NCBI RefSeq assembly: GCF_000172995.2
Contig: NC_014731.1
Span: 307,011-339,010 of the forward strand
Reading direction: 5' to 3'
DNA: 32,000 bases
From: Halogeometricum borinquense DSM 11551
GTDB lineage: Archaea; Halobacteriota; Halobacteria; Halobacteriales; Haloferacaceae
In this document: piece after piece, positions 3,844-28,214 of the stretch
How positions within the stretch are numbered: position 1 is the first letter of the stretch
Layout of the letters: each line of letters opens with the position of its first letter
The notes under the pieces: model-generated
Databases searched by the model: none
The model's input: the letters and a program-made list of their open reading frames with translations, nothing else
What the model was told of the DNA's origin: nothing
Translations under genes and position numbers: made by a program

Positions 3844-4114
3844 TAATTGGGAGACACGAACTTCTTTCGGTGTTTGTCTGCAGTTTGAACAGCTATCGAA
3901 GAATGTCGACGACCCCCTTCGACATAGCTGGTTGAGTAATCATTCTGTGGAAAATAGGGCTGACAGAACTGGTTAGAGAACATTGCTGTACGGATACTCC
4001 TAAGCGTCGTGATGCGTGACTAACAACAAGTATGACTTACCCTCAGACGGATTCACTATCACATATGATACTCTGACGAAGTGTTAAATACAACCGTCAT
4101 TTTATTTCGTTTGG

Positions 4115-5035
4115 GTGTACACAGTGAGAAAAGTCCGATCTTATGGGGTGTTGCTTGTCTTGTGCATACTGATGGTCTCTAGTGTGTTTGTAGCCACACC
4201 AGTTGCGTCTGCTGAGGATGATGATCATGGGGTCAATGAATCGAAATTACAAGAACAAGCAATTAATCCTGAGCTCCGACCGTTTTTGTGGAAAGACGGT
4301 GCGGGGCAGTACCCCTCGTACAAACGGCAGGAAGTCGCGGGGTTCAGCGGCTATCTAGAACGAAAAAGTGCAGATCGACTCACTACACTGCGGTATAATT
4401 TCAATGAATCTGTATTCAGCGACGAGTATGATACATATCTGGTCATTGCTCGCGTGGCGTGGCATGCAAATGGGAATGGAGACCAAGAACGCGCTGTGAC
4501 CAACCAAGGTCAACAGGATATCCCCGGCAGTAGTGCGAATGAGGACTGGGGAACCGTCCGGTTGCCGCTGGCTCCAGATGACGATCCGTTCGTCAAGCTT
4601 TCTGCAGAGTATGAAACTGGCTACTTGTCGTCTGGAACTGCCGTTGTGCGTGTACAACGTATTACTGTTATTCCTGCTCGCCTCGTTGGGAGACTCTCTA
4701 ATGAGGAGGTGCTGGAAATTACTTCACAGTCTGGTGATGCCGACACTACTCGGACCGTCACGAATACGGAGCCGGCTACAACACCATCTCCCAGTGTGCA
4801 ATCTACTTCTATCCCCTCTCCCACACCGACGGCTGTTCCTCCGACGGCCCAACCCATTGTCAGCCCTACGCCGATTACGCCTGATGTGACCACTGATTCG
4901 AAACTCTACGATGACCGCGGTCTATTCTTGCCGAACGACGAACTATTGCAGGCAGGGTTGAATGCGTGGGTGTTGTCTGTGCTTGGGTTTGTAGTTTCAA
5001 TCATAGGTGTTGGGTACTCAATGTGGAGGGACTAA
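4115..5035 (+). CDS. secreted surface protein with Sec-type signal peptide, Thr/Pro-rich linker and C-terminal TM anchor
   Basis: GTG start. The N-terminus VRKVRSYGVLLVLCILMVSSVFVATPVASA|EDDD looks like a signal peptide. A T/P/S-rich stretch (TEPATTPSPSVQSTSIPSPTPTAVPPTAQPIVSPTPITP) is followed by the terminal hydrophobic helix WVLSVLGFVVSIIGVGY. Confidence 0.7.
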   Translation: MYTVRKVRSYGVLLVLCILMVSSVFVATPVASAEDDDHGVNESKLQEQAINPELRPFLWKDGAGQYPSYKRQEVAGFSGYLERKSADRLTTLRYNFNESVFSDEYDTYLVIARVAWHANGNGDQERAVTNQGQQDIPGSSANEDWGTVRLPLAPDDDPFVKLSAEYETGYLSSGTAVVRVQRITVIPARLVGRLSNEEVLEITSQSGDADTTRTVTNTEPATTPSPSVQSTSIPSPTPTAVPPTAQPIVSPTPITPDVTTDSKLYDDRGLFLPNDELLQAGLNAWVLSVLGFVVSIIGVGYSMWRD

Positions 5036-5036
5036 C

Positions 5037-5666
5037 ATGTCTGGCTCAATTTCGCTCCTCTGGAGTCTCGTGTCTGGTGGGCTGTTGGCAATTGTTGGTG
5101 GTGTAATTGGATTAAACAGCAATCCGCCATTGATGTATGCCGGGTATCCCCCGGCGTTTTTCGGACTCTTTGCGATCCTCGGTGGGACGTATTCATACCT
5201 CCTATCCCCGCAGACGATGACTCCGCGCGGTGGGGAGGCAATTGTCTTTCAGACAGAGCCAACACAGTGGGTCGCTGGCAGTAAATCAGTCGGCGGTCTC
5301 GCTCTCGCATCAATCGGTGTGTGGGGCATTGCAGAAACGTCACTGCCGCTTGCGTATCCGGTTTGTGTCAGCGTCGTTGGCGTTTGGTTTTACACCCTCG
5401 GGCTGACTCGGCTCTGGCGCAACTCGCTAACGAAGTACTACGTCACCACCGACCGAGTCGTCGAAACGTACCAACTACTCAGCGTCACTCAGAAGACAAT
5501 GCCGCAACGACAGGTCCAGGGCATCGAAAAGCGGAAAACGCTCATCGAGAGGTTGTTGTCTGTCGGCCATGTCCGCATTGAGTCTGCGGGAGACACTGGG
5601 ACATCGAGAATCATCGCTCGGAATATCCGGGACCCAACACAGCTTGTCAACGCGATTCGAGAGTGA
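5037..5666 (+). CDS. membrane protein with bacterial PH (bPH_2/DUF304, YdbS/YdbT-like) domain
   Basis: The ATG at 5037 lies 1 nt after the stop of the upstream gene. Four hydrophobic segments are followed by YYVTTDRVVETYQLLSVTQKTMPQRQVQGIEKRKTLIERLLSVGHVRIESAG, typical of bPH_2 domains. The ORF-track start at 5007 overlaps the upstream gene and was not used. Confidence 0.7.
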   Translation: MSGSISLLWSLVSGGLLAIVGGVIGLNSNPPLMYAGYPPAFFGLFAILGGTYSYLLSPQTMTPRGGEAIVFQTEPTQWVAGSKSVGGLALASIGVWGIAETSLPLAYPVCVSVVGVWFYTLGLTRLWRNSLTKYYVTTDRVVETYQLLSVTQKTMPQRQVQGIEKRKTLIERLLSVGHVRIESAGDTGTSRIIARNIRDPTQLVNAIRE

Positions 5667-5781
5667 GTTCTCCCACTATGGAGGCAGAAAAGCCCGGTCT
5701 AAGATAGTTGGAATGGTTAACCCAGTGAGTCACCCAACAAGCAAACAAAGTGAGTTCCCTAGGACCTAGCCCCGAGGCGAT

Positions 5782-6753
5782 TCACTCAAGGTTGCCTTCA
5801 TTTTCGAGTCGCCGCATCACTTCTTTGTGTTGCTGTTCAGCGGCATCTTCAGGTGTATAGCGGTCACCACCCGTGTAATCGTCGTCTTCCCACGGTTTGT
5901 CAGGACCAACACCGACCGGCGGCGTATCACCGTGAGTCGTATCACACGTGAGGCAGGTCCAGAGTGCGACACCATCAACGTGGACCGAGGGGTGGCCCCC
6001 GTCATACCCGTCGAAAATATGCTGTGTCGCCTCGCCACAGTTCGGACAGCTCCGATTTCGAACTGTTTTGTCGGTGGTGTTGCGCTTGCGGTCGTAAAGG
6101 ACTGCAGGAACCACCCAGTAGTCGTGGCTCTCACAGTGTGGTTTCTCGTCGAAGTCTGCCAGTCGGTCCTTGTCAACGAGCCCGTCACCGTTCTCGGTGA
6201 AGATGTACGGGTCGCTGTCCGAAAGGGGTGAATTGGTCACATCGGGTGATTCTTCGACGGATAGTGTCGTCTCCCAGTCGGTCTTATCAACCGCGGTCTC
6301 GAAGAGTCGCTGCCCGTCGTTGGAGTCCAGCGGGACTGCGTCGGGGAGGCTTCCCCACCCAGCGGTCAGTATTTGGGCGGGGTCGTCGATATCGTAGAAC
6401 AGTTCATAGCTGCTACGCGACTTGTGGCCTCCGTCTCGAAGGCGGAACGATGAACTTCCGATGGCGAGCGCATGGTAGCGATTTGATGCTGGGATGATGG
6501 CGATCGCAGTCTTCGAAATCGACCACTCGTAGTCGGTAGCGTCGGCCGCTCGCGGCGATGACTCGCGGTGGTCGACACAGCGAGCGCGCGTCGGTGGAAT
6601 CGACCCGCCACAGACTTCACAGTGTGCTGGGCTGGCTTCGACATCGTGGTTTGCAAATTGCCACTCATGCTGATGAGACTGTCTTCCGGTGTGATTTGGT
6701 CCGCCTGCTGTGCCAGGGAGTTCCTCTCGTGGAATCCGACCTTCGTCGTCCAT
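5782..6753 (-). CDS. acidic zinc-ribbon protein, function unknown
   Basis: Start placed at MDDEGRIPREEL (ATG 6753-6751), because the 46 upstream codons are Y/I/V-rich and read through the AT-rich promoter region. Motifs are CEVCGG-x9-C-x2-H and CPNCGEATQH-x27-CLTCDTTH. Confidence 0.7.
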   Translation of the reverse strand: MDDEGRIPREELPGTAGGPNHTGRQSHQHEWQFANHDVEASPAHCEVCGGSIPPTRARCVDHRESSPRAADATDYEWSISKTAIAIIPASNRYHALAIGSSSFRLRDGGHKSRSSYELFYDIDDPAQILTAGWGSLPDAVPLDSNDGQRLFETAVDKTDWETTLSVEESPDVTNSPLSDSDPYIFTENGDGLVDKDRLADFDEKPHCESHDYWVVPAVLYDRKRNTTDKTVRNRSCPNCGEATQHIFDGYDGGHPSVHVDGVALWTCLTCDTTHGDTPPVGVGPDKPWEDDDYTGGDRYTPEDAAEQQHKEVMRRLENEGNLE

Positions 6754-6833
6754 CAGGCACCCATAGAGGCGGCTTGTATTTATGTTGTAAACATAATATG
6801 TCCGAATAGAATATACGTATTGATATTGAATAA
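6754..6833. promoter_or_regulatory. AT-rich divergent promoter region between the zinc-ribbon gene and the Rad3-like helicase gene
   Basis: An 80-bp spacer very rich in A/T (ttgtatttatgttgtaaacataatatgtccgaatagaatatacgtattgatattgaataaatg) offers several TATA-like elements on both strands. Confidence 0.4.
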
Positions 6834-9800
6834 ATGCCAATGCCACCGAGCGATGACCAGAATACTGGTGACTCACCCCATGTTCCCCCATGGATATCTG
6901 ACGGAGAGACGGCTGATCCAGACATTATCAACGTTGATTCGAAGCATGATTCGACAGAATCTCCTGACTCACTGACTAGAGGTGTGGGTCCGGTCACTGT
7001 TTCTGACCTCGACAGAACATGGGCACCCTACTTTCGGTACGACTCTGTCTACCAAGACCAGATTGATGCAGTTGATACGTTCCTTGAACTCCTCTCGGAG
7101 AACGGCTATTACGTTTTTGAGGGAGCATGTGGGACTGGCAAGACGTTGGCGGCCGTCACTGGCGGGATTCACGCGATTCGCGACCAGTCGACACTGACGA
7201 AGACCCTTGACAACGTTTCTGGAGACTTTCCTGACTACTCGCGGCTGTTCGTGGTTACGCCACTCAAACAGCAACTCCACCAGTTCGTCCGGGAAATGAA
7301 GGGTATCAATGCGTCCCTTCCTGAAGCTAAAGCTCCCGTCTCAACGGTCGTGATCAGGGGTCGAACTGATATGATGCCGTATGCGTACGTCGACTTCCCA
7401 CCGTTCGATAGACACGGTGTCGGTGAGAAGATGGATGATCTTAGGGAGATGACGCGAAAGCTCATCAAGTTCGATAGCGACATTCCACTGGACTGGCCGG
7501 GGGACATGTCACCACCAGATTTCTCAAAGGTTGACTACAACTGGGAAGAAGCTAGCTTGACAGCGGAAGACCACCGTGAACGGTTTCGATACGATCCCGT
7601 TCGAGCAGAGGCAGTCACCCGAATCGTCAAGGATATGGATCCAAGAGGCGACGAGAGTTTCGATCGCCTGACAGTCAATGGTGTTGAGACACCATATCCG
7701 GACCTCGTTCCTCATACGAACGACGTCGTCGATACAGACGTACTCCAGCGACGAGGGACAGGCCAACTTTCCGTTGGGCTTCAGGGCAAGTTCGATCCGT
7801 TCTATGCCGGGGCGTTCATGGAGGACGGTTTGCCGTTCGACTTCCATCACGCGGACCATCACGTATTCGACCAAGAGACGCTTTTCCAGACAGCGGCCTC
7901 TCGAGGTATCTGTCCACACGAGGCGATGGCGATGCTGGCAGGTCGGGCGGAGGTCGTTCTCGGGAACTACTACCACCTCTTCGACCCCCAGACCCGGCTA
8001 CTGACCGACGATAAAATTGGTCTACTGGACTCGGAAACCATCGTTGCCGTCGACGAGGGGCACCAGATTGAGGAGCGGGTCCGCGATATGCTCTCGATGT
8101 CGCTGGATATCTATACACTTGACCGGGCAATTAACGACATCGAGATCACACGAAATTACGCGGTGGGTGACCTCGCCAAGACGCCTACGCCGAACCTCAA
8201 TACCAGCGACGCAAGATTGGCCGAATCGCTGGCTGACAGCGCACTCGATACGGTCGGAAACTACTCTGTGACTCCTGAAGATCTCGCTGAGGTCGAACAG
8301 CTACTTCGATTCGCCAAGCAAAAGCTGACTGTCTACGGTTCGGACGCCGTGAGCGAGCGCTACCAGGACATCTCGTGGCAGGATGCCGTCGAACGCTGGG
8401 GTGCAGACCCTATCGAGAACGCGCTTTCTGACCCAGAGTGTCCCGACGAGTCCGACGAGTTCCTTACGGACGCGATTGCTGAGGACGACTTTGACACTCG
8501 CTCGTTCTTCAAGGTCTATCCGGCGATGTTAGGGACGAAGTTCGTGTTCGAGGCACTCGAAGAGGCGGGGATCCACGACCGAACCCCACAGGGCGTAGAG
8601 GTTGGGAAGTTCTTCAAACGCTGGGCAGCCGAGGGTACCGTTGAGTACCACCGTGAGGTCGTCCTCGACGACCGGCGAAAGGAGACCATACCGACGGAGT
8701 TCCCCGACTGGGTGAAGGCGTGGACACCGAAATTCCAGCTATTCAACTGCATCCCTCGGGACGAACTCCAAGCGGTGTTCGGAGAACTGGGCGGGGGCGT
8801 CCTCATGAGTGCGACCCTCCAGCCTGAGGAGGTTTATACTGAGGCGGTCGGCATCAACGATATCCCGTTCCCCACGGAAGACGAAGAGGACGACGATGCC
8901 GAGGAGACGGACGTGGTGACGAAGCCCTCTGCGGGAACGAGCCACGATAACTCCGACATCCGTCCAACCGCGTTTGAGCAGTACCCATTGCGATTCCCTC
9001 AGGAGAACCGGGTGTCGCTTATCGCCGACCTCCCGAAGTTCACGAACCGGAATCGAGGGAAACGAACGACTGACCCGCGCCAGATGAAGCCGGTCCGTAA
9101 GCAGTATGCAGATCTTATTGAACAAGCGATTGCCGGCCGTGGGAATATCCTCGTGGCGATGCCGAACTACCGGGAAGCGGAGTGGGCATATAACTATCTC
9201 AAGAAGCAAGGGTCGTCCAAACGGTTTCACCTCGACCAGTCGAGTTCGGCGCTCGAAACCGACGAGACGCTGGAGTCGTTCTTTGCCGACGGTGACGCGG
9301 TCATCTTCACCAGTTCGCGCGGCACGATCACTGAAGGCGTTGACTATGACGGCGAGAAGTTGCACGGATGCGTGGCCGTGGGGATTCCGCTTCTTCCAAC
9401 AAACTCGAAGCGTATTGATGCTGTGATAGAGGCCTATGACGAGCGTATTGGTGTCAAATCGGGATTCGAGACGGCGCTTATGATCCCAGCTGTTCGGAAA
9501 GTTCGCCAGGCGTTCGGCCGGGTGATTCGTGGGTCGGACGAAGCTGGCTTCCGTCTCCTCGTCGATGAGCGCTACGGATCGACAGGTTGGGACGGTGTGA
9601 ACGAGTACCTCTCCGAACAAGAAAGAGAAGAGTTCCAGACTGCAGACCCAGAATTCATCAGCCAGATGATCTCGACGTTTTGGGACGACGTGGACGAACG
9701 GGAACGGGAGCGAGAGGCGGAGGACGACCCGAAGAAGAGTGATATAGAAACGACGAGAACCACGGCGCCGACCGACGATATAGTCCAGAAGTCGGCTGTC

Positions 9801-10112
9801 GGGACGGAAGCAGGCGGTACCAATCAAAAATCCACGACCGAAGTGACGGCAACGAGTGATCCCTCGGCAACGTACTCGAAAATCTACTTTGGAGATGGTT
9901 CAAACCTCTCCAACTGGACTCCCATTAGGACCGATATCGCCGAGAACGAAATCATCCCTATCGTGCGTGAACACACAGTAGATGAAGAGAGCGGTACGGA
10001 GTACATCCAACTCAACTTCGCCAAGGAACTCTCAGTCAGTGGTTGGACAAAAGTCGATGCAGAGATTGTCCATACGCAAATCGAGCCGATAGCAAAACGG
10101 GCGAGGAAGTAG
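6834..10112 (+). CDS. XPD/Rad3/DinG-family SF2 DNA helicase (Fe-S cysteines absent) with C-terminal extension
   Basis: 1092-aa ORF. Motifs are FEGACGTGKTLAAV (Walker A), IVAVDEGHQIEE (DEAH-box variant), ICPHEAMAM...VVLGNYYHLFDP, VLMSATLQP, FTSSRGTITEGVDYDG, QAFGRVIRGSDEAGFRLLVDERY. An acidic linker and a ~90-aa terminal domain follow residue ~920. Confidence 0.9.
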   Translation: MPMPPSDDQNTGDSPHVPPWISDGETADPDIINVDSKHDSTESPDSLTRGVGPVTVSDLDRTWAPYFRYDSVYQDQIDAVDTFLELLSENGYYVFEGACGTGKTLAAVTGGIHAIRDQSTLTKTLDNVSGDFPDYSRLFVVTPLKQQLHQFVREMKGINASLPEAKAPVSTVVIRGRTDMMPYAYVDFPPFDRHGVGEKMDDLREMTRKLIKFDSDIPLDWPGDMSPPDFSKVDYNWEEASLTAEDHRERFRYDPVRAEAVTRIVKDMDPRGDESFDRLTVNGVETPYPDLVPHTNDVVDTDVLQRRGTGQLSVGLQGKFDPFYAGAFMEDGLPFDFHHADHHVFDQETLFQTAASRGICPHEAMAMLAGRAEVVLGNYYHLFDPQTRLLTDDKIGLLDSETIVAVDEGHQIEERVRDMLSMSLDIYTLDRAINDIEITRNYAVGDLAKTPTPNLNTSDARLAESLADSALDTVGNYSVTPEDLAEVEQLLRFAKQKLTVYGSDAVSERYQDISWQDAVERWGADPIENALSDPECPDESDEFLTDAIAEDDFDTRSFFKVYPAMLGTKFVFEALEEAGIHDRTPQGVEVGKFFKRWAAEGTVEYHREVVLDDRRKETIPTEFPDWVKAWTPKFQLFNCIPRDELQAVFGELGGGVLMSATLQPEEVYTEAVGINDIPFPTEDEEDDDAEETDVVTKPSAGTSHDNSDIRPTAFEQYPLRFPQENRVSLIADLPKFTNRNRGKRTTDPRQMKPVRKQYADLIEQAIAGRGNILVAMPNYREAEWAYNYLKKQGSSKRFHLDQSSSALETDETLESFFADGDAVIFTSSRGTITEGVDYDGEKLHGCVAVGIPLLPTNSKRIDAVIEAYDERIGVKSGFETALMIPAVRKVRQAFGRVIRGSDEAGFRLLVDERYGSTGWDGVNEYLSEQEREEFQTADPEFISQMISTFWDDVDEREREREAEDDPKKSDIETTRTTAPTDDIVQKSAVGTEAGGTNQKSTTEVTATSDPSATYSKIYFGDGSNLSNWTPIRTDIAENEIIPIVREHTVDEESGTEYIQLNFAKELSVSGWTKVDAEIVHTQIEPIAKRARK

Positions 10113-10360
10113 CAGATCAGGGTTCACCCATAGAAAAATCCGGTTCTGTAGTTTCGCTAGACCGAGACGCCGCACCTGCAATAAGATAACAGCCAATGAA
10201 CTGCATTGGAGAACTGCAGTTCTGTATTGTTAATCTGTGAAGGGATTAGAACTGATGAACGGGCTTCACGCGGAACGTATCTGGGTCAGCGTTCGGCGTC
10301 GTGGGCACCGTCCGGAAGAAACGCTGTCTGAGAATGAGAGTAGATCGCGAAAGAAGCATA

Positions 10361-11941
10361 CTATCCGTCTTCAGAATCGGTGATTACCTCCGTATATCCG
10401 AGCTTGATGTGGCGCCATTCGAGGTGTTTCGCATCCTGTTCGGCGGCCTTGAGCTTGGCTTGGTTCGCGAGCGCCTCTAGGTCAGCACCCGACCAGCCGT
10501 CAGTATGTTCCGCAAGACGCTTGACATGGTCTTCCGTCAATTTGTGTGGAACGTCCAGTACGGTCAGCTTGAGGATCTCTGTCCGTGCTTTGATGTCGGG
10601 GAGTCCGATCTCGAACTCACAGTCAATACGACCAGGACGAAGGATTGCTTCGTCCATCCCATCCCGCTGGTTCGTCGTCAGCAGCAGGATGAAATCCTGC
10701 TCCTCCTTGGTGAGCGCAGAGAGGAACATATTCGTGACCTTCTGATCCTCCGCGTGTGCGTTCTCACCCCGCGTGCGGTCGCTCAGTAGCTGTTCAGCCT
10801 CGTCGATGAAGACGACGCCGCCGAGGTGCTGCGCTTCCTCGAACAGCCGCTTGATGAGCTGTGGGCTCTTGTTAATGTACTCGTGGGTGAGGTCAGCCTG
10901 CGTCAGTTCGACGAAAGGCCGGTCAAGAGCGTTCGCGATCGCCCGAGCGAATAGCGTCTTCCCCGTCCCCGGCGGGCCTTGGAACAGGAGGCCACGCGAC
11001 GGCTCCACGTCGAACCGATCGTAGCTCTCGCTGTCCGACTGTAGCGGATTGATGACCTGACTGGAGAGTTCCTCCTTGACGTCGTTGTAGCCACCGATGT
11101 CTTCGAACCGAACCTCCGGTGGCTCCTCCCAGGGATACGCGAATGATTCTATCCCGGTGTCCTCATCGTCCTCATCGCCCTCGTCAAGGTACTCTTCGGT
11201 GCTGTCGGCGTCTTCTTCCGTCAAGGCTTCTTCCGCGTTCTGCTGGACTATTTTCACCAATTTCTCTTTGTCAATATCGGGCTCCGGATCACTCTCGGCA
11301 GGATTGATCGAGTGGTTGTGGTTCGATTGCTCCGCCTCCGACTTGTCGTTCGATTCAGTCGGTTGACTGGCCGGCGTGTCAGATCCAGTCTCTCCTACCG
11401 TGGAAGTGGAATCCGTTTGCCACTGGGTTTCACGATTCTTGGACTCAAATTCTGGGGAATACGTCCCGTATGGATGTTCTCCTCCGAAGGTTGCGTTTTC
11501 GTACTTTCTAGATCCGAAGGGGCTCGTATCCAGATACCTCTCAATTGGATTCCCGGTCATATGGGCGACGCATGCTGCGACTGCGGTCGCGATACCCGCG
11601 CTGGCGAACACCTCAGTATTGCCAGTCCCATTGATCCATTCGACAGGGGAATATCCTAGGGTAATCCCGTGGAGAGTAACGATTCCGACCGCGAAAGCGC
11701 CAGCAACGATGCCCGTGTGAATGGGCTCCCAGAGATCCACATGCAGGTGGATCAACGCGCTGAGAATGACCACTACCAATAGTAGCGCCGGAGCGTTTGT
11801 CATGCTGCCGAACGCAACCAGCAGTACGATCTGCAAGGTCATTCTCTTGAAGGGAAGCCGTTCTTCTTCTTCCCAGTAATAAAACCACGTCAGGCTCATC
11901 CAGATGTAGGCGATGGCAAATAGCAGTAAGCTAAGACTCAT
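10361..11941 (-). CDS. membrane-anchored AAA+ ATPase (classic AAA clade, no protease domain)
   Basis: The N-terminal ~135 aa hold 4-5 hydrophobic helices, followed by an acidic linker. The AAA module has GLLFQGPPGTGKTLFARAIANAL (Walker A), GGVVFIDEAEQLL (Walker B) and LLLTTNQRDGMDEAILRPGRIDCEFEIGLPD (sensor/Arg finger). Confidence 0.9.
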   Translation of the reverse strand: MSLSLLLFAIAYIWMSLTWFYYWEEEERLPFKRMTLQIVLLVAFGSMTNAPALLLVVVILSALIHLHVDLWEPIHTGIVAGAFAVGIVTLHGITLGYSPVEWINGTGNTEVFASAGIATAVAACVAHMTGNPIERYLDTSPFGSRKYENATFGGEHPYGTYSPEFESKNRETQWQTDSTSTVGETGSDTPASQPTESNDKSEAEQSNHNHSINPAESDPEPDIDKEKLVKIVQQNAEEALTEEDADSTEEYLDEGDEDDEDTGIESFAYPWEEPPEVRFEDIGGYNDVKEELSSQVINPLQSDSESYDRFDVEPSRGLLFQGPPGTGKTLFARAIANALDRPFVELTQADLTHEYINKSPQLIKRLFEEAQHLGGVVFIDEAEQLLSDRTRGENAHAEDQKVTNMFLSALTKEEQDFILLLTTNQRDGMDEAILRPGRIDCEFEIGLPDIKARTEILKLTVLDVPHKLTEDHVKRLAEHTDGWSGADLEALANQAKLKAAEQDAKHLEWRHIKLGYTEVITDSEDG

Positions 11942-12379
11942 GCTGTGTTCCTCCTTGAGTCGGGTGAACGGGAGAGAAGCCCAGCGCTCGGGCCGCAGGT
12001 GCGGGCACGCGCCGCCGGGAGTCGAGGTGGGCTTTCATCCGTTCTTACTACCTGTTTCTGAGATTTCAGTTATAAAGTTCCGCCTCTGAAAGGTAGATCG
12101 GAACTAGTACGGCGGCACGAACCGATGTTTGGAGAAGGAAGCCGAGAACGCGGCTACGAGTCACCGACTGCGAGTGTAACCGTTCGCAAAGCTGCGTCTT
12201 GGCTAACGCCATACACATCGACGAGGACGTTCGCGAGCTGGTCTCGAGATGGGTGCTCGCCGTTGTGCTCGTCCAGATAGTAGCTGATCGCTGGCCGGAC
12301 GCACCCACAAAGATACTCAGCTACGCCTCTATCTCTCTCCCGCGGAGTTGCGTAGCAAAAACAAACGAACAGCGACCGT

Positions 12380-13732
12380 CTACGCTCGACCGCTATTCCG
12401 CGCTAACTTGCGGCTCTGTCGAGCGATCTTGGAACCAGTTTTGATTCCGCGTTCAGTAAGCTGGCCGGCTTCAAGCAGGTCGGGGATGATGTAATCCTCA
12501 TAGGAGTCGATATCCATCCTGAGATCGTTCAGCCAGCGGGCTGGGAACGTCGAATCAGGCTTATGATCGACGCGGTAGAGACGCCATCCTGCACCAAATC
12601 GTGCTCCGACGATAGTGCCGGCGACAGCGCCGATCGTATCCGCATCACCGCCGTTGTTCACAGCGGAAACGATTGCGTCTTCGGCAGAGTCAGCGGTGAG
12701 GCCGTAGTAGAGCGCGGTCTCAAGCGTATCAAGGACGAATCCACTGTTCTCAAGGTCATCCTCACTGACCTCATCTGGAACCCGCTCCAGCCGTTCTACA
12801 AGTTCTGCGGGTGCGTCATCAGAGAGAGCCGTAAGAGCGACCTGCAGCGGTTCTTCTGAACCGTTGAGTATCGCTGCCAGCGTTAGGTTGAGGACCGCGC
12901 ATCCGTGCGTGCAACGCGGGTCTGCATGCGTGATTTCAGACGACTTCCGGCTCATCTCTTGGAGCATCTGTTGGTCGTCAGGGTACGCAATTGCGAGTGG
13001 AGCGCACCGCATTACACTCCCGTTCCCTGCAGCGTTGTTCGCACCACGAGATTCGAGCGTTTTGTGCCCGGCTTCACTAGCCGGGACACCATTCTGAAGC
13101 CACGTGATGGAACTAATCGTCGTCACGCCGACGTCGAATGGGTCCGACTCGAACCACTCCACCAACTGTTCAGCGTACCGGGCAGCGTTGAACTCACCGT
13201 GCGCAAGGAGGTTCGCAACTAGATAGAGTGCAAGGTTCGTATCGTCAGTAACCGTCCCTGCCGGCTGGTTGTGGCTACCGTCCCCGAAGAACTTGGTAAC
13301 GGTCCCGTGTTCCGCTTCGATTTCACTCGAGGACATGAACTCAACAGGACGCCCGAGCGCATCGCCACATGCGAGACCGAGGATGATACCGATAGAACGG
13401 TCGAGTCGCGTAATCAGTTCTTGGTCGTCGACGTCCCGCCCGATCGTGTTGTCTGCAGTTGCTTCCAGCCCCCACGTGCGCCGGATCCGCTCGGCCTGGA
13501 GAGAGAGTTGGCGACTGGACTGGTGCTCAGACGGCGTTTCGAGGAGGTCGAACCCGGTCAGGTCGGTGTACCTCGTGACGAGCTCGTAGTCGGACTTGAA
13601 GGGATGAAGTTCGTAGAAGTGACCTTCCGTCGGTAACGGCTTATCCAGGTCGCTGTATGGGGCGTGATCGTAGTTGTTCCCCTTAGTAAACGGATTCTCC
13701 GGAGGCATTGTAACATCCGACTCATCTTCCAT
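12380..13732 (-). CDS. ADP-ribosylglycohydrolase (ARH/DraG family) with ~115-aa N-terminal extension
   Basis: Motifs are GLACGDALGRPVEF, TDDTNLALYL, GNGSVMRCAPLAIAY and NGGDADTIGAVAGTIVGARFG. The start is uncertain: MEDESD at 13732, or 13759, or 13708. Confidence 0.85.
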   Translation of the reverse strand: MEDESDVTMPPENPFTKGNNYDHAPYSDLDKPLPTEGHFYELHPFKSDYELVTRYTDLTGFDLLETPSEHQSSRQLSLQAERIRRTWGLEATADNTIGRDVDDQELITRLDRSIGIILGLACGDALGRPVEFMSSSEIEAEHGTVTKFFGDGSHNQPAGTVTDDTNLALYLVANLLAHGEFNAARYAEQLVEWFESDPFDVGVTTISSITWLQNGVPASEAGHKTLESRGANNAAGNGSVMRCAPLAIAYPDDQQMLQEMSRKSSEITHADPRCTHGCAVLNLTLAAILNGSEEPLQVALTALSDDAPAELVERLERVPDEVSEDDLENSGFVLDTLETALYYGLTADSAEDAIVSAVNNGGDADTIGAVAGTIVGARFGAGWRLYRVDHKPDSTFPARWLNDLRMDIDSYEDYIIPDLLEAGQLTERGIKTGSKIARQSRKLARNSGRA

Positions 13733-13894
13733 ACCGAATCGGTAGATGACACTACACAATAATTACCTAGCTCATCACGGGGATCACGGACTGCAGCCGT
13801 TGGCTCCCCTGACTGAGAGGAATGCTCTGATGGCATCGGGATGTCAAGCGTCGAGATTGGGGAGTGTGCGGTTGGGACACATGCCCCAGTCTAA

Positions 13895-14080
13895 TTATGC
13901 CTCGCGTTGCAAGAGGAGACTCACTGTCGCGCCACGCTTGTCAGTAATCGGAGCGACGACATCCCAGCCATCTGCCCCGAGTTCGTTCAGTCGCCCAACC
14001 GGCGGGTCAACGTTGCCACCGAGTCCAGCCACCATGACGCTGCTGTCGACTTCGACAGTCCGATATTCGTAAGAGGGCAT
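13895..14080 (-). CDS. DUF4177 domain protein
   Basis: MPSYEYRTVEVD...LNELGADGWDVVAPITDKRGATVSLLLQRE has the size and the Y-E-Y / GW-(D/E)-(V/L)-V pattern of DUF4177. Confidence 0.65.
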   Translation of the reverse strand: MPSYEYRTVEVDSSVMVAGLGGNVDPPVGRLNELGADGWDVVAPITDKRGATVSLLLQREA

Positions 14081-14236
14081 GCGCATGCTCTGATGACGAC
14101 CAGTAGCAAACCTCTTGTGATTTTCGCAGTGGTGGAGAGGTGCTGCTGCACCACTGATCGGTACTCCGCGTTCACGCGGAGGAGGATGTCAACTGGCTCG
14201 GGTACCGAAGGGCGATATGCAGTCGTTCGCTCAACC

Positions 14237-14953
14237 ATGGGGACTATCAAAAGAGAGTATGATGTACCAGTATCGAGTTCAAAAGAGGCTCATGACGTGA
14301 CTCGTAAACCGCTCCCCACCGAACATCTCTCACCACTCGCTACGCTCGTGGATGAAGTACTTGCATGCGTTGGGTACGAGATGGCGGCCGCCACCGACAT
14401 CATCGACGACGCTGTCCCCGGCTACGGCGGCCTCTTCGACCCTGCGACGACCCCCGGAGAGTTGCGACACGCGCTCGACAGCGTGCTGGCATCAGACCTC
14501 AGCCGGCCTCCCGCCCCTGAGTCGACGGACGACTCGTTCATCCTTTACGTCGATGGCGGTTCACGCGGCAACCCCGGCCCAGCGGGTGCAGGCGCGGTCA
14601 TCATGGACGCCACCGAAACCGAACTCGCCCGGCTCGGCCGTCCTGTCGGCTCCCGGACGGGGAACAACACCGCCGAGTACGTTGCCCTCCAACTGGGACT
14701 TTCCGAACTACTGGCTCGCTACGACCCCCGGAGCCTAGAAGTACGCATTGACTCGATGACGGTCATCAGGGACGCCTGGGATGACGACGACCCGACAGAG
14801 CCAGGCGTCGAGACGTACAGCGAGGCGATCGCCACGGCACTCTTGAGCGTTCCAGAACACCGGTACACGCATCTCGCGGATAGTGACCCAAACCCAGCCG
14901 ATGCGCTGGCGACAGTCGGGGCCGATATCGCAGCATTAGGACCCGGATCGTGA
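14237..14953 (+). CDS. rnhA: ribonuclease HI (type 1 RNase H) with N-terminal extension
   Basis: FILYVDGGSRGNPGPAGAGAVIMD, GNNTAEYVALQLGLSEL and VRIDSMTVI supply the DEDD-type RNase H core. The start is ambiguous (14237, 14186 or 14093). The ORF-track start at 13907 overlaps the opposite-strand DUF4177 gene and was rejected. Confidence 0.85.
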   Translation: MGTIKREYDVPVSSSKEAHDVTRKPLPTEHLSPLATLVDEVLACVGYEMAAATDIIDDAVPGYGGLFDPATTPGELRHALDSVLASDLSRPPAPESTDDSFILYVDGGSRGNPGPAGAGAVIMDATETELARLGRPVGSRTGNNTAEYVALQLGLSELLARYDPRSLEVRIDSMTVIRDAWDDDDPTEPGVETYSEAIATALLSVPEHRYTHLADSDPNPADALATVGADIAALGPGS

Positions 14954-21379: not shown

Positions 21380-21740
21380 GGGTGTCAAGGTTGGCTGATG
21401 GCATTATGGTACGCGGCGAAGGCTTTGGCCCAGCGGTCGACTGATTTCTAGGAGCTATTGTGGGGAACTGGCTGTGAACCGCCCCGGGGTCAAGCCCCGA
21501 GGCACTCGCCTTGTTTTCTCTGTAGATCGACTTGATGAACCCAGTTGTGAACGGCGACCTCGCTCCGATCGATCCTAAACCTTCCGAGATACTTACTTAC
21601 CTCACGCAGCGACATGCCGGCCAAGTGACTGCGGATCCCTATTTCAATCGCCCAGCGCGGCGTTTGATCTCGCTCCACAAACGACAAGTCGATCTACATG
21701 ATTCGTTCGCTGAGGCGTTCGATTTCGGTCATAGACACTC
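21380..21740 (-). mobile_element. internally deleted IS6-family (ISH-type) element remnant
   Basis: The transposase N-terminus (21490-21687) reads MSFVERDQTPRWAIEIGIRSHLAGMSLREVSKYLGRFRIDRSEVAVHNWVHQVDLQ. A C-terminal tail in another frame (about 21386-21445) reads KSVDRWAKAFAAYHNAISQP*. The catalytic core is missing. Putative ends GGGTGTCAAGG (21380) and inverted GAGTGTCTAT (21740) are only partly complementary, so the boundaries are approximate. Confidence 0.5.
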
Positions 21741-21856: not shown

Positions 21857-22600
21857 TTAGTCTTGCGCGAGTGCGGCTTGTAGTTCGTCGTCGTCAGAGA
21901 GACCTTCGAGATCTCCGGTTTGGAGCCGCCAAAGGTCTGTATAGAGTCCATCTTGGGTGACGAGGGACTCGTGCGTTCCTTCCTCTTTGAGCTCTCCTTT
22001 TTCGATAGTAAGGATGTGATCGGCAAATCGGACTGTAGAGATGTTATGCGCGACGACGAACGTCGTGCGGTTCGCGGTAACCTCTCGGAGTGATTGCTGA
22101 ATGAGGACCTTCGTTCGATTATCAACGTCGCTGGTTGCCTCGTCGAGAATCATGATTTCGGGGTCGCCGACGACTGCGCGAGCGAGCGCGATGCGTTGCC
22201 GTTGGCCACCCGAAATCCGGTTGCCGCCTTCACCGACGTCGGTCTCGTATCCGTCGTCGAGGTCCTCGATGAACTCGTGTGCTTTTGCTTGTTTGGCGGC
22301 TTCGACAATTTTGTCTGTGGTTGTGTCTGGGGCTCCGTAGCTGATGTTCTCGGCGACGGTTCCAGCGAAGAGGTACGGGTCCTGACTGACATAGCCGATA
22401 GCAGACCGGTAACTGTGTTTCGAAAACTCGCGGATATCGGTGTCGTCGACGGTGATCGTTCCGCTGGTGGGGTCGTAGAAGCGGAAAAGGAGCTTGAGGA
22501 TTGTTGATTTCCCGGAGCCAGTCGGGCCGACGATGCCAACGGTGTCGCCGGACTCAGCATGGAAGCTGAGATTATTGATGGCTGGTTCGTCGATTGATAC
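21857..22600 (-). pseudogene. 5'-truncated ABC exporter: nucleotide-binding domain only
   Basis: The continuous frame reads VSIDEPAINNLSFHAESGDTVGIVGPTGSGKSTILKLLFRFYDP...GYVSQDPYLFAGTVAENISYGA...ISGGQRQRIALARAVVGDPEIMILDEATSDVD...VVAHNISTV. Walker A, Q-loop, signature, Walker B and H-loop are all present. There is no transmembrane domain and no start codon upstream of 22600. Confidence 0.8.
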
Positions 22601-24871: not shown

Positions 24872-25365
24872 CTGATGGTACCGTTACGAGACAAACCTCC
24901 GCCGCGTAAGCCAAGTTTAGAATTCGTGAGGCAGGTTGTGGAAGGAAGGAAGTGTTAGTGGTAGGTAGCTCAGCGGAAGCGCAGCAGAGCGTCCCAAATT
25001 GACCCCCTCAGCGCTGCTCACCCACGTGGTGAACACGTTCACATGAATGATCACAGCAAGATACAGAAATCGTAGCACTTCCCAGGTTCCAAACTAGCGC
25101 CGAGAGCTACGAAATCTTCCTGCTCCGGCATGGTATCTGGCGATAGACCGAGGTAAACGTGGTAAGCCACTTCTTGAGCAGGCTTGGCGTCGAGACATAA
25201 TATATCAGTTAGATAGGGAAGACTGCTGAGGTCTGCACATTCTGTTGCTTGGGGAAACGATACAAGCTATGAAACAATACTCATATGAGTAAGAACCCTG
25301 CAGGTCAAATTCAGCTTTATTATCCCTGATAGGGGAATCGCACTACGATTGTGTCTTGCTTATAT

Positions 25366-25596
25366 ATGGAGGCGCTTGCGTTCGCAAGCGTCTCCGCGAT
25401 TCTCATCGAGATTACGAGGGCGAACGGCTCCGAGGTGCGCCCCATGTCCGCTCTGAAGGAGCTGGGGACAGATACACCAGATGACGTTGTCGACCAAATC
25501 CGGCTGGACACCATCGACAACATTGGTTCATTTTTTAGAAACTCGAACTCGTCGGCGGGCTCTGTGCAGAGCGTTCCGTCACGTTTCGATCCGTAG
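25366..25596 (+). CDS. small acidic hypothetical protein whose stop codon lies inside the orphan CRISPR repeat
   Basis: MEALAFASVSAILIEITRANGSEVRPMSALKELGTDTPDDVVDQIRLDTIDNIGSFF... The opposite-strand ORF (25320-25616) has non-halophilic composition. No family was recognised. Confidence 0.3.
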   Translation: MEALAFASVSAILIEITRANGSEVRPMSALKELGTDTPDDVVDQIRLDTIDNIGSFFRNSNSSAGSVQSVPSRFDP

Positions 25597-25617
25597 TGGG
25601 TTCTCGTCGGCTGCAAC
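25583..25617 (-). CRISPR. orphan degenerate CRISPR repeat (type A)
   Basis: gtttcgatccgtagtgggttctcgtcggctgcaac matches the 37-nt unit at 26506-26542 with 2 substitutions and 2 single-nt deletions. The minus-strand reading begins GTTGCAGCCGACGAG; the canonical ATTGAAAC end is degraded here (ATCGAAAC). Confidence 0.5.
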
Positions 25618-25692
25618 GCGAGCCGCCGTCGGCGTTAGAACACGGGAGGAAACACGCCAACAGTCCCGCTGACAGTAGCGAAGACGAGTAGC

Positions 25693-26172
25693 CTACGGTT
25701 TGTCTAAGAGAAGCTCATTCAGGCTGTCTGTTAGCGATTCAGCCTCACCAAGTGTAGACCGGGAACGGGGCTCAGATTCCTCAAAGACTGTGTCCTCCTG
25801 CATTACGGACTCGAGATCGACATCGAGATCGACATCTGCGTCAGTAGCATCTATTTCTTTCCAGTTGGGGCCGTCTTCCTCACGGGGGAGTTCAACCAAT
25901 TCGTCGTGGACTTTCTCGACGTGGTGGTCGTCGAGAAATAGAAAATCGGCACCGCTCGACTCTGCAAGCATCACCCGGCTTACGGTACCCCAGACTTCGT
26001 ATGTTCCAGGTTCGTCAGGGATCGCGATTTCATCATCGGCGCTCAGTTCGAGCGGGTGGTCTCGGTGCGGGCGGTCAACTGCGATCGTGTCCCCCTCATC
26101 CCGAAGGACACGAATACGGACGCTATCGCCCGATTCAGGGGCGGAACGTCCGTCGACGAGTTTGTGTTCCAT
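25693..26172 (-). CDS. very acidic hypothetical protein located between two direct CRISPR repeats
   Basis: 159-aa ORF rich in D and E (e.g. DATDADVDLDVDLESVMQEDTVFEESE). The overlapping plus-strand 259-aa ORF is Ser/Arg-rich, as expected for the antisense of an acidic gene. Confidence 0.65.
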   Translation of the reverse strand: MEHKLVDGRSAPESGDSVRIRVLRDEGDTIAVDRPHRDHPLELSADDEIAIPDEPGTYEVWGTVSRVMLAESSGADFLFLDDHHVEKVHDELVELPREEDGPNWKEIDATDADVDLDVDLESVMQEDTVFEESEPRSRSTLGEAESLTDSLNELLLDKP

Positions 26173-26505
26173 ACCTGAAAGAAGAGAGTACGTTCATTTG
26201 AATCTGTTCACCCGACCATCGTCCAGATGCACACGGTGGTTTTTATCGTCCCGGTGTAGTGAGACTATGAATACAGAGAAGACTGCTTCAGGAGGAGAAA
26301 CCGGTGGAGAATCCGGGAGACTATTCGGGCAGCTGCCAGCAGAGGTGAGCGGATGGGAGCAGCATCAGCGCACGCCGGCTGACAGTCTCTTCAAGTATTG
26401 GAAGAAGGGGTCGACGCACATCGTGGAGCCTACGAGCAGGTCGTCGCGAAGGAGTTGCGTGATGGCGACATCCGCGTGACGAAACGTACCTACGACCAGT
26501 TCAAC

Positions 26506-26595
26506 GTTTCAATCCCGTAGTGAGTTTCTCGTCGGCTGCAACTCCATGAGCTTTGCATAGATGGTAGCGGGGACGTGAGTTTCAATCCCGTAGTG
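26506..26595 (-). CRISPR. CRISPR remnant: full 37-nt repeat A, 36-nt spacer, 17-nt partial repeat A
   Basis: Repeat 26506-26542 read on the minus strand is GTTGCAGCCGACGAGAAACTCACTACGGGATTGAAAC, with the canonical ATTGAAAC 3' end. The spacer is 26543-26578. Positions 26579-26595 repeat the last 17 nt of the unit exactly. Confidence 0.6.
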
Positions 26596-26632
26596 GTCGC
26601 AGTGCGGAAGAAACCCAACACGGGATTGAAAC
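26596..26632 (+). CRISPR. single CRISPR repeat of a related variant (type B) in opposite orientation
   Basis: GTCGCAGTGCGGAAGAAACCCAACACGGGATTGAAAC is 37 nt and matches the minus-strand reading of repeat A at 27/37 positions. Shared parts include GT-GCAG at the 5' end, GAAAC in the middle and ACGGGATTGAAAC at the 3' end. Confidence 0.5.
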
Positions 26633-27005
26633 TCCGCAGAGGATCCCCGCGAATCTCTTCGCACTGGGGGTTACAGTTCAACGAACACATTAGGAAAGCA
26701 GCTAATCCGGATTGGGATTATTCGTTTCACGCCATCTGGGAGCCTCTCCCCCTGTACGAGGGCGCCTATCACCATTAGCGACCGGAACACGCTACCACTC
26801 AAAAATAGGCGTCTCAGAGGACGACGACACCAATCCAATACGACCCCTGCAAATCACTGCTACGAAGACCTGATTACTGAGAATTGTTGATAGCTCTGTG
26901 TCACTTAATCTCCGGAGCGTCCTATTTCGCGTCGGAGAAACGAAACACGTCAATGAGAAGTACGTGGGCGCTAAGGGCTGAGAAGAGAAGTAAGCGAGTC
27001 CGAAG

Positions 27006-28214
27006 CTAGATGTCGCCGTTGATGATATCTGCGACGCGCTGGCGGTCGAAGAGCTTCGTGTCGCTGGTCACGTCCCCGAAGACATCCGGATACAGCTGCT
27101 TCGCGGCCCGCTCTGTCAGGAAGAGGTTGTGAATTGGTCCCTGGCGGAGGTAGCCACCGCGATAAACGCGGTTATTCTGCACAGCCGTCAATTCGCTGCC
27201 AACCGGATGATCCTTCATATAGGCAAGGACCGTATCGCGGAACTCTGACGCCGACTTCTGTTCGTGACCCCTGATCAGGAGCACGTCGGGGTCGACTTCG
27301 AGGAGGTTCTCGTAGTCGAGTTCGCCGCGATTATCGGTACTAAGGTTCTCGATGTCGGTTCCGGCGAGAGCGTCCGCCACGCCGAGATCGTTCCACTGCT
27401 TCTTGCTCGTCCCCTTGTCGGTCAGGCGGTACGGCGAGAATGTGTCAGGCTCGTTGGTCCCCTCAAACGTGAGCATCACGTTCGGGCGCTCGCCGGACGG
27501 CGGCATTCGCGACTGGATTTCGGTGATGAACTCATCGTGGTACTGCTTGAACGCCTCGTACCGATCGCGCTCCTGGAACAACTCGGCAACCTTCTCGAAG
27601 GCCTCGTATAGCGTGTAGAACCGGTAGTCATGCCAGCTGTCGGATCGTCGGAAGATCATGTTCCCGAGGAACGGCCCGACCTGCTCGCTAATCTCCGCGA
27701 TGTCCTCGTCCCTCCAATCGAACCAGTTCCGCAGCATCCCGGTGTCGATAATGTGGACGTCACTATCCATTTCGTAGAACAGTTCCTTCGACATCCCGGC
27801 TTCGACCAAGTCGTTCTTTTCGATCCGGTCTTTGTCAACACTCACACCGGGTAACTCCTCGTAGACGTACGTGTAGTACTCGCCGGGCTGCCCAATGCCG
27901 ATCATGCTGTCCGCATGACCCAGTGCAACACCCATGTCGGCGTAGTCACCGCCGTAGGGCACCCACTGCTCCGGGATCGAGTCGAACGTGACCTCTCCCA
28001 TAGGAGCCATCGTTACCGAGTAGCTGACATCCTCGGTCGCCGTCTCCGACTCGGTGCCGGTCGCCGTCACCGTTGATGTTTCGGTCCCCCCGGTGTCGTC
28101 GGGCGCAAACAGACCAGCGCAGCCAGCGAGAGCGCTGCTGCCGATGACTGCACCGCCGTATTTCATGTAGTCACGTCGCGTCGGTGCCTTGTGCCCACCG
28201 CTATCTTCGGACAT
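27006..28214 (-). CDS. ABC transporter substrate-binding lipoprotein (iron-siderophore/cobalamin-type periplasmic binding protein)
   Basis: MSEDSGGHKAPTRRDYMKYGGAVIGSSALAGC has a Tat motif and a lipobox, followed by a Thr-rich linker. The length and conserved stretches (e.g. PDVLLIRG) fit class III SBPs. Start placed at the ATG at 28214. Confidence 0.8.
   Translation of the reverse strand: MSEDSGGHKAPTRRDYMKYGGAVIGSSALAGCAGLFAPDDTGGTETSTVTATGTESETATEDVSYSVTMAPMGEVTFDSIPEQWVPYGGDYADMGVALGHADSMIGIGQPGEYYTYVYEELPGVSVDKDRIEKNDLVEAGMSKELFYEMDSDVHIIDTGMLRNWFDWRDEDIAEISEQVGPFLGNMIFRRSDSWHDYRFYTLYEAFEKVAELFQERDRYEAFKQYHDEFITEIQSRMPPSGERPNVMLTFEGTNEPDTFSPYRLTDKGTSKKQWNDLGVADALAGTDIENLSTDNRGELDYENLLEVDPDVLLIRGHEQKSASEFRDTVLAYMKDHPVGSELTAVQNNRVYRGGYLRQGPIHNLFLTERAAKQLYPDVFGDVTSDTKLFDRQRVADIINGDI

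Follow-up and report, generated by a model that had tools for sequence, protein, structure and literature searches.

Within a window of 32,000 nucleotides (nt) from Halogeometricum borinquense DSM 11551 (contig NC_014731.1, positions 307,011 to 339,010; all positions below count from the first letter of this window, unless a locus is named), a handful of repeats belonging to a CRISPR family are arranged head-to-head. We consider it likely that they are vestiges of a single type I-D CRISPR-Cas locus, lying in a low-G+C, horizontally acquired region. The point at which two repeat variants, A and B, meet is best read as the scar of a deleted cas cassette, because intact loci of the same family have two outward-reading arrays that differ in repeat variant. 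A further feature is an 888-nt piece of a mobile element (fragment X), which bears an intact gene and lies between two copies of variant A.

The complete copy of variant A is the sole match to GTTGCAGCCGACGAGAAACTCACTACGGGATTGAAAC in the window when up to three mismatches are allowed (none is expected by chance). It is separated by a 36-nt spacer from a truncated copy that lacks the 5' 20 nt of the variant and retains just the 3' 17 nt. Variant B adjoins the truncated copy directly, with no intervening spacer, at the junction 26595/26596; by our own count A and B are identical at 27 of 37 positions. The original prediction had described each of these units (the full and the partial A, the spacer and the abutting B), and pattern and repeat searches recovered them all. 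B carries the hairpin of the family, CCC-N5-GGG, together with the tag ATTGAAAC; folding predicts the stem in B and in the family consensus, while A reads CTC instead of CCC. Against a profile of 68 repeat variants from related arrays, B scores 41 bits (E 5.6e-12) and A 24.6 bits (E 8.7e-7), and even the 17-mer is recognised (E 3.8e-4). B is thus a good member of the family and A a more divergent one. The Rfam model CRISPR-DR60 gives B 27.3 bits, which is under its 45-bit cut-off.

A third, degenerate copy of variant A, also noted originally, stands at the trailer-distal end of the A array. This copy (A') is identical to A at 33 of 37 positions, differs by two 1-nt deletions and two substitutions, and has an exact 17-mer in common with it. 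Measured against the family consensus, A has undergone one change (C20T) and A' two deletions and one substitution. Because the CTCA of A is still the consensus CCCA in A', the two copies have drifted independently from a common ancestor, and their separate mutations fit neutral decay. It is typical that the most degenerate copy is found at the array end, as for example in locus L040.

The junction also generates an inverted repeat. Its existence and its 28-nt loop had been predicted correctly, but its length had been put at 13 nt, which is too short: positions 26577-26591 pair with 26620-26634 in 15 perfect pairs. The predicted fold has a free energy (dG) of -31.6 kcal/mol and a z-score of -4.4. 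This hairpin is a by-product of the meeting of A and B, and any function is only putative. A second H. borinquense strain has the same structure, with identical repeats and 99.5% identity over 4.5 kb, on a contig of 848 kb, and the arrangement recurs in an independent read-set assembly; the structure is therefore not an artefact of assembly.

Table 1. Features of the repeat locus, of the embedded fragment and of the surrounding window (nt, nucleotides; aa, amino acids).
Feature	Position	Strand	Sequence, evidence or remark
Repeat A (variant A), complete, 37 nt	26506-26542	-	Reads GTTGCAGCCGACGAGAAACTCACTACGGGATTGAAAC; pattern search and profile
Spacer, 36 nt	26543-26578	-	Reads TCACGTCCCCGCTACCATCTATGCAAAGCTCATGGA in array orientation
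Truncated A, 3' 17 nt only	26579-26595	-	CACTACGGGATTGAAAC; exact copy (repeat search), profile match
Repeat B (variant B), complete, 37 nt	26596-26632	+	Reads GTCGCAGTGCGGAAGAAACCCAACACGGGATTGAAAC; pattern, profile and folding
A', degenerate copy of variant A, trailer-distal end of A array	25583-25617	-	Reads GTTGCAGCCGACGAGAACCCACTACGGATCGAAAC
Inverted repeat forming hairpin, 15 perfect pairs, 28-nt loop	26577-26634		Repeat search, folding
Fragment X of conserved haloarchaeal mobile element, 888 nt, between A and A'	25618-26505	-	blastn homology
HNH endonuclease gene remnant, last ~24 codons	25620-25691	+	EPPSALEHGRKHANSPADSSEDE*; tblastn, alignment
Intact gene, conserved 159-aa protein	25693-26172	-	Homologues, alignment, AlphaFold
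277-aa gene, first 80 codons	26267-26505	+	Frameshift at codon 53/54; ends exactly at A border
UvrD/GajB-like helicase	265-3843		
Rad3/XPD-DinG-like helicase, 1092 aa	6834-10112		
AAA ATPase resembling IteA/IetA	10361-11941		
ADP-ribosylglycohydrolase	12380-13759		
RNase H/RVT_3 protein	13907-14953		
IS6-type transposase, N-terminal fragment	21490-21687	-	
ABC transporter ATPase pseudogene	about 21857-22582	-	

To place the repeats in a family, 185,579 species genomes were scanned for the 3' 23 nt that A and B have in common. This yielded 37 stretches, most of them regular arrays of 10-43 repeats with a period of ~72 nt, in Halarchaeum, Natrialba, Haloferax chudinovii, Halobaculum, Haloplanus, Halococcus, Natrinema and others. 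Repeats are 37 nt long, and the 514 spacers measure 33-39 nt with a mode of 36, the length of the spacer in the window. The arrays adjoin genes for Cas10d/Csc3 (E 1e-139), the I-D Cas3' (1e-88), Cas1d (4e-113), Cas4, Cas2, Cas6 and Csa3; the family is thus found in true arrays beside cas10d/csc3, the signature of type I-D. The 37-nt consensus repeat, the small stem-loop and the 8-nt 3' tag ATTGAAAC are those of a type I-D array, and the published description of the type agrees in repeat length, in the small stem immediately preceding the cut site and in the 8-nt tag (PMC10212523). On this sequence evidence we assign the family to type I-D. The earlier assignment to 'I-D/I-B/III' therefore stands as regards a CRISPR family with ~36-nt spacers, and is narrowed to I-D by the cas10d/csc3 neighbours.

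Compared with type I-D arrays such as CRISPR1 of Synechocystis and the haloarchaeal I-D loci, the window locus is alike in its 37-nt repeat, its spacer (~35-36 nt in those arrays), the stem-loop just upstream of the 3' tag and the presence of cas10d/csc3 beside its relatives (PMC10212523). It differs in that no cas gene and no leader were found, and in having one canonical repeat-spacer-repeat unit, one repeat of which is truncated. There is no regular series of repeats with 33-39-nt spacers: beyond the single canonical unit the next interval is 888 nt, and B is solitary. No leader precedes the first repeat of either array, the 5' side of each being the other array. The flanks in the window have nothing in common with the flanks of 39 related loci.

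The architecture of these relatives bears directly on the junction. In about 20 loci the order is array(-) csa3(-), followed by cas6(+) cas10d(+) ... cas3' cas4 cas1 cas2(+) array(+). One array of an intact locus thus lies beyond csa3 and the other beyond cas2; the two are transcribed divergently and consist of different repeat variants, with 5 positions distinguishing the two arrays of one locus in both Haloferax chudinovii (L019/L039) and Natrialba asiatica (L035/L014). Removal of the DNA between two such arrays joins their leader-proximal ends 5' to 5', which is the geometry at 26595/26596. The deletion would have taken out csa3 through cas2 together with both leaders, joining a 5'-truncated A, which reads leftward, to the first base of B, which reads rightward; the missing 5' 20 nt of the truncated copy would mark one end of the deletion. 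What survives of the A array would be the truncated repeat, the 36-nt spacer, the full repeat, an over-long slot and the degenerate terminal repeat, and B would be the sole repeat left of the second, oppositely oriented array. We infer the deletion event itself; the anatomy of the sequence, the repeat family, its cas type and the architecture of the relatives are direct observations.

Intermediate stages of such decay are visible in other haloarchaea. In Halobacteriales archaeon YIM A00010 (L010, 668-1641), minus-strand repeats are followed by a frameshifted cas2 pseudogene (819-1066), a leader-like stretch and plus-strand repeats, among which two partial 3' ends stand in tandem (1554-1580). 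In L021 a solitary repeat adjoins a fragment of cas2. In the metagenome-assembled genome of Halobacteriales archaeon QH_7_65_31 (L030, 6200-6307) an inverted pair of repeats stands 5' to 5', 34 nt apart, and may be another scar of a deleted cas cassette. The gene beside this pair is antitoxin-like by eye.

No cas homologue was found in the 32-kb window by family and profile searches, a defence-library search or tblastn; the original description, a CRISPR remnant with neither cas genes nor a leader in view, therefore holds. When all open reading frames of the 39 related loci and seven I-D Cas proteins were used as tblastn queries for cas pseudogenes in the window, the matches were noise from translated repeats. 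The 1092-aa helicase, which PADLOC matches as 'type IV DinG', is not one of the cas genes: NCBIfam assigns it to the Rad3/DinG family, and the curated Csf4 model gives it 27 bits against a cut-off of 400 bits. For the genome as a whole, Lynch et al. report 1 CRISPR locus and 0 cas genes in H. borinquense DSM 11551 (PMC3404096). A Cas10d search returned no Halogeometricum among the named entries of the best 120 homologues, which lends weak support to genome-wide absence. With no Cas6d, Cascade or Cas1-Cas2 on record for the genome and no leader present, the relic in all likelihood yields no CRISPR RNA (crRNA) and confers no immunity, as judged from sequence.

Several observations weigh against reading the locus as a dead relic left by such a deletion. 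The number of positions at which A and B differ, 10, is double that between the arrays of an intact locus, and the two may have come from different loci. Neither variant A nor variant B turned up in its exact form in any array of the 185,579 species genomes, the JGI metagenomes or IMG/VR; comparison with other genomes, by which parent arrays were to be traced, thus placed the family in true arrays but neither exact variant in any. The absence of cas genes from the whole genome is taken from the 2012 paper and an indirect search, our own scan being of the 32-kb window. The relic is identical in two strains, which is expected of close relatives and is also compatible with selection. Lastly, a deletion leaves the 888-nt fragment unexplained.

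Relatives of variant A in the genome scan were of the CCCA type only. All 11 of 11 metagenome matches to the 5' half of A lacked the 3' half and were dismissed as chance. A seemingly conserved junction on Halostella and Salinibaculum plasmids proved to be an ordinary array in which the end of a spacer mimics the 17-mer by chance.

Cas-less haloarchaea with orphan arrays have been recorded before (H. borinquense itself, Natrialba magadii and Haloquadratum walsbyi DSM 16790), and such arrays, which like the present one combine haloarchaeal repeats with the lack of cas genes, have been read either as the outcome of cas loss or as acquisition of the array only (PMC3404096). The locus is a vestigial orphan array of the kind already noted for H. 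borinquense. It differs from the earlier records in that its anatomy is resolved, with two variants joined 5' to 5' and a gene-bearing fragment in one slot; what is new is the account of the head-to-head junction and the unexplained gene-bearing insert in a spacer slot. The relic mostly documents the death of a CRISPR-Cas locus, in which the cas cassette is lost and the flanking arrays collapse together. For annotation, inverted solitary repeats of this haloarchaeal 37-nt family mark former type I-D loci. Among orphan CRISPR relics it is most likely ordinary, save for the 888-base piece of a mobile element with an intact gene in its spacer slot; this gene-sized insert with repeat-exact borders is the one point that could matter more.

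Fragment X is homologous to a conserved mobile element at 64-74% nucleotide identity, with about 70-74% for independent copies; the element occurs on the Halosimplex pelagicum chromosome, the Halomicrobium mukohataei plasmid pHmuk01 and several metagenome contigs, and no source above about 74% identity was found. The gene order of the element is TBP, FUN14, 146 aa, 277 aa, 155 aa, an optional HNH gene, 214 aa, 248 aa, a thioredoxin-like gene, 289 aa and a DEAD helicase. (The genes of the element, as represented by L043, L045 and L047-L056, also include a methyltransferase, and the element is absent from IMG/VR.) Fragment X holds, in element order, the tail of the HNH gene, a complete 159-aa gene, an intergenic region and the start of the 277-aa gene; no other part of the element is present in the window. 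The HNH protein of L047, used as a tblastn query on a 900-nt target, revealed the HNH tail (E 5.8e-5); the Halosimplex protein did the same for the start of the 277-aa gene, its residues 1-53 and 54-80 matching in two frames (E 5e-26). An open reading frame of 103 aa lies between the repeats of L010; considered as a homologue of the 277-aa gene, it has no homology to it.

This content overturns one claim of the original prediction, which had taken 25618-25653, ending in AACACGGGAGGAAAC, for a degenerate B and, with A', for a second junction. The segment is element DNA, reads AACTGGGCAGGGAAC in relatives and encodes the conserved C-terminal tail PPSALEHGRK of the HNH protein.

The borders of the fragment coincide with those of the repeats to within 0-3 nt. 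By blastn, homology to the element ends at 25623/25626 on one side and at 26503-26505 on the other. Six non-redundant types of copy cover the latter end: in four, homology stops at 26505, the base beside A, and in the remaining two at 26503-26504. On the A' side it stops at most about 3 nt from the first base of A'. Fragment X therefore lies between two repeats just as a spacer would, at the oldest position in the A array. Differences between strains over 25300-26900 (against L042) fall inside the fragment in 6 of 6 cases, among them a 6-nt insertion or deletion in the acidic tail of the 159-aa gene; neither the repeats nor the outer flanks differ.

Kilobase gaps are found in other arrays of the family, caused by an insertion sequence (L009) or by PIN/AbrB-like modules between tandem arrays (L017, L024, L033). 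These are alike in opening kilobase gaps between repeats, but the inserts are complete elements that have ends of their own, or lie in a trailer or leader, whereas fragment X is truncated on both sides at repeat borders. The modules in L017 (791-2608), L024 (824-2383) and L033 (5943-7648) consist of PIN-domain and AbrB-like toxin-antitoxin genes, from two genera, and the same conserved trailer, AGGGGGTGATTGTTGGAGTATAGGCCC, precedes each.

Because the fragment borders coincide with the repeat borders, the fragment probably entered by a process specific to such borders while the CRISPR system was still active. Three routes may be envisaged. Two neighbouring spacers derived from the invader could have recombined with it, contiguous invader DNA replacing spacer, repeat and spacer; Cas1-Cas2 could have integrated an untrimmed, gene-sized prespacer; or breaks at repeat borders could have been repaired, which would also give exact borders. 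That CRISPR-linked chemistry (spacer recombination or a long prespacer) installed the fragment while the system was active is possible, though on balance we doubt it. In related copies the 3 nt upstream of the fragment start are GTG in 2 of 5 and ATG in 3 of 5, and GTN is the type I-D protospacer-adjacent motif in Synechocystis (PMC10212523). GTN also precedes a terminal segment of 35 or 33 nt, for which the expectation by chance is about 1/3, given seven possible spacer lengths; the pattern is a hint, an open observation and not a finding. A search of the 514 family spacers against the element copies gave matches of 15-17 nt only, which is the level of chance.

Recombination between a CRISPR spacer and its target (Varble et al. 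2019 and Watson et al. 2018, as cited in PMC8616872) would explain how invader DNA came to be joined at spacer borders. The known cases, in the form in which that source cites them, are of CRISPR loci moved by transduction in bacteria, whereas for fragment X such an event would be conjectural.

We know of no description of a spacer-repeat-spacer unit replaced by 888 nt of contiguous invader DNA. If true, an entire functional gene of an invader would have been taken up and retained by a CRISPR array, with nucleotide-exact borders. If the placement was CRISPR-linked, arrays would be capture sites for invader genes, and invaders could erase the spacers directed against them by gene conversion. 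A single example for which no source has been traced is insufficient to establish gene capture by arrays.

An origin other than deletion of a cas cassette has to be weighed. The repeats could constitute a mini-array and solitary repeat units on a mobile element, which borrow the type I-D Cas6d and Cascade of a host in order to attack a competing element, to act as decoy or to recombine with host arrays. The form fits viral mini-arrays and solitary repeat units as published, and a single spacer does lie between a complete and a truncated repeat at 26506-26595, as in the definition of a mini-array (PMC8616872). As presented in that source, the mini-arrays that viruses and proviruses carry (Faure et al. 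2019; Medvedeva et al. 2019) likewise show a single spacer bordered by one complete and one truncated repeat, as well as solitary repeats and surroundings that resemble a mobile element (PMC8616872). The surroundings here are low in G+C, with genes of mobile and defence type, an IS6 transposase fragment and pseudogenes, and the DNA between the repeats derives from a mobile element. Furthermore, the plasmid pHM100 of Haloferax mediterranei (NC_017942.1; L041, 4930-5037) carries a cas-less mini-array of two 37-nt repeats and a 34-nt spacer, the repeat of which is identical to B at 36 of 37 positions. (H. mediterranei is a species known for a type I-B system.) Against this, the known mini-arrays, as that source describes them, have repeats that match an active host system and spacers that usually hit a competitor, and neither is the case at the window locus (PMC8616872): the host is reported to be cas-less, so that there is nothing to borrow (PMC3404096), and the spacer, for which a halovirus or plasmid origin had been thought worth seeking, has no counterpart among phages and plasmids, in IMG/VR, in the window or in the related copies of the element. 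IMG/VR also lacks the repeat family, such repeats occur in none of about 14 loci with copies of the element, and variant A has diverged from the consensus within the stem beside the Cas6 cut site. We regard a mobile mini-array as unlikely.

The same spacer prompts a comparison with crRNA-like regulatory or addiction RNAs of the CreA or cr-like RNA kind, in which a degenerate unit guides Cascade to a partly matching promoter. The degenerate mini-array form is suitable, and bases 1-11 of the spacer recur at 27068-27078. This match is nevertheless at the level of chance (E 0.94), lies in a coding region and is preceded by TGG rather than the I-D motif GTN; such RNAs are, moreover, encoded within cas operons and need Cascade, of which there is none in the window and none reported for the genome. 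A regulatory role is accordingly very unlikely. (The gene containing 27068-27078 is that of a periplasmic-binding protein.) Still less can be said for homologous recombination of two opposed arrays within the 13-nt segment ACGGGATTGAAAC, which had been the explanation favoured originally. A and B do hold this segment exactly and in inverted orientation. A crossover within an inverted shared segment gives rise to an inversion of the intervening DNA and to chimeric repeats. The junction falls outside the segment, joining position 20/21 of A to base 1 of B; there the 13-mer is intact in both its copies, no chimeric repeats are present, and a truncated repeat abuts a complete one; we therefore set this explanation aside as highly improbable. 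Finally, the motif might not be CRISPR at all, but a dispersed repeat such as a miniature transposable element with inverted ends at 25583-25617 and 26596-26632. A' and B are indeed inverted and about 1 kb apart. However, the motif occurs at one locus only in the window and elsewhere forms regular, bona fide arrays beside I-D cas genes, and the DNA between the supposed ends is a piece of a larger element, truncated on both sides, rather than a self-contained unit. That the repeats are transposon ends is barely conceivable.

Returning to fragment X, the 159-aa protein encoded by its intact gene has 15 homologues at 52-98% identity, with no match in Pfam, PHROG or PADLOC. AlphaFold predicts an N-terminal beta-barrel (predicted local distance difference test score, pLDDT, 80-88 over residues 1-100) followed by a disordered acidic tail. 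The best Foldseek matches are OB-fold proteins (E 0.004-0.1, TM-score about 0.3), so that the predicted barrel bears a weak resemblance to the OB-fold. The gene keeps its own upstream region and, to judge from its sequence, may well be expressed.

The wider window is a low-G+C region in which G+C varies between 42 and 61%. It matches contig AOHT01000017 of assembly GCA_000337855.1, AOHT being the project of H. borinquense (PMC3783009). The region has no match among phage and plasmid records or in IMG/VR. A run of genes of the defence-island type occupies 265-14953 (Table 1), in which no complete known system was recognised. The whole looks like an acquired, decaying island, and the IS6 fragment and the ABC transporter ATPase pseudogene are signs of that decay.

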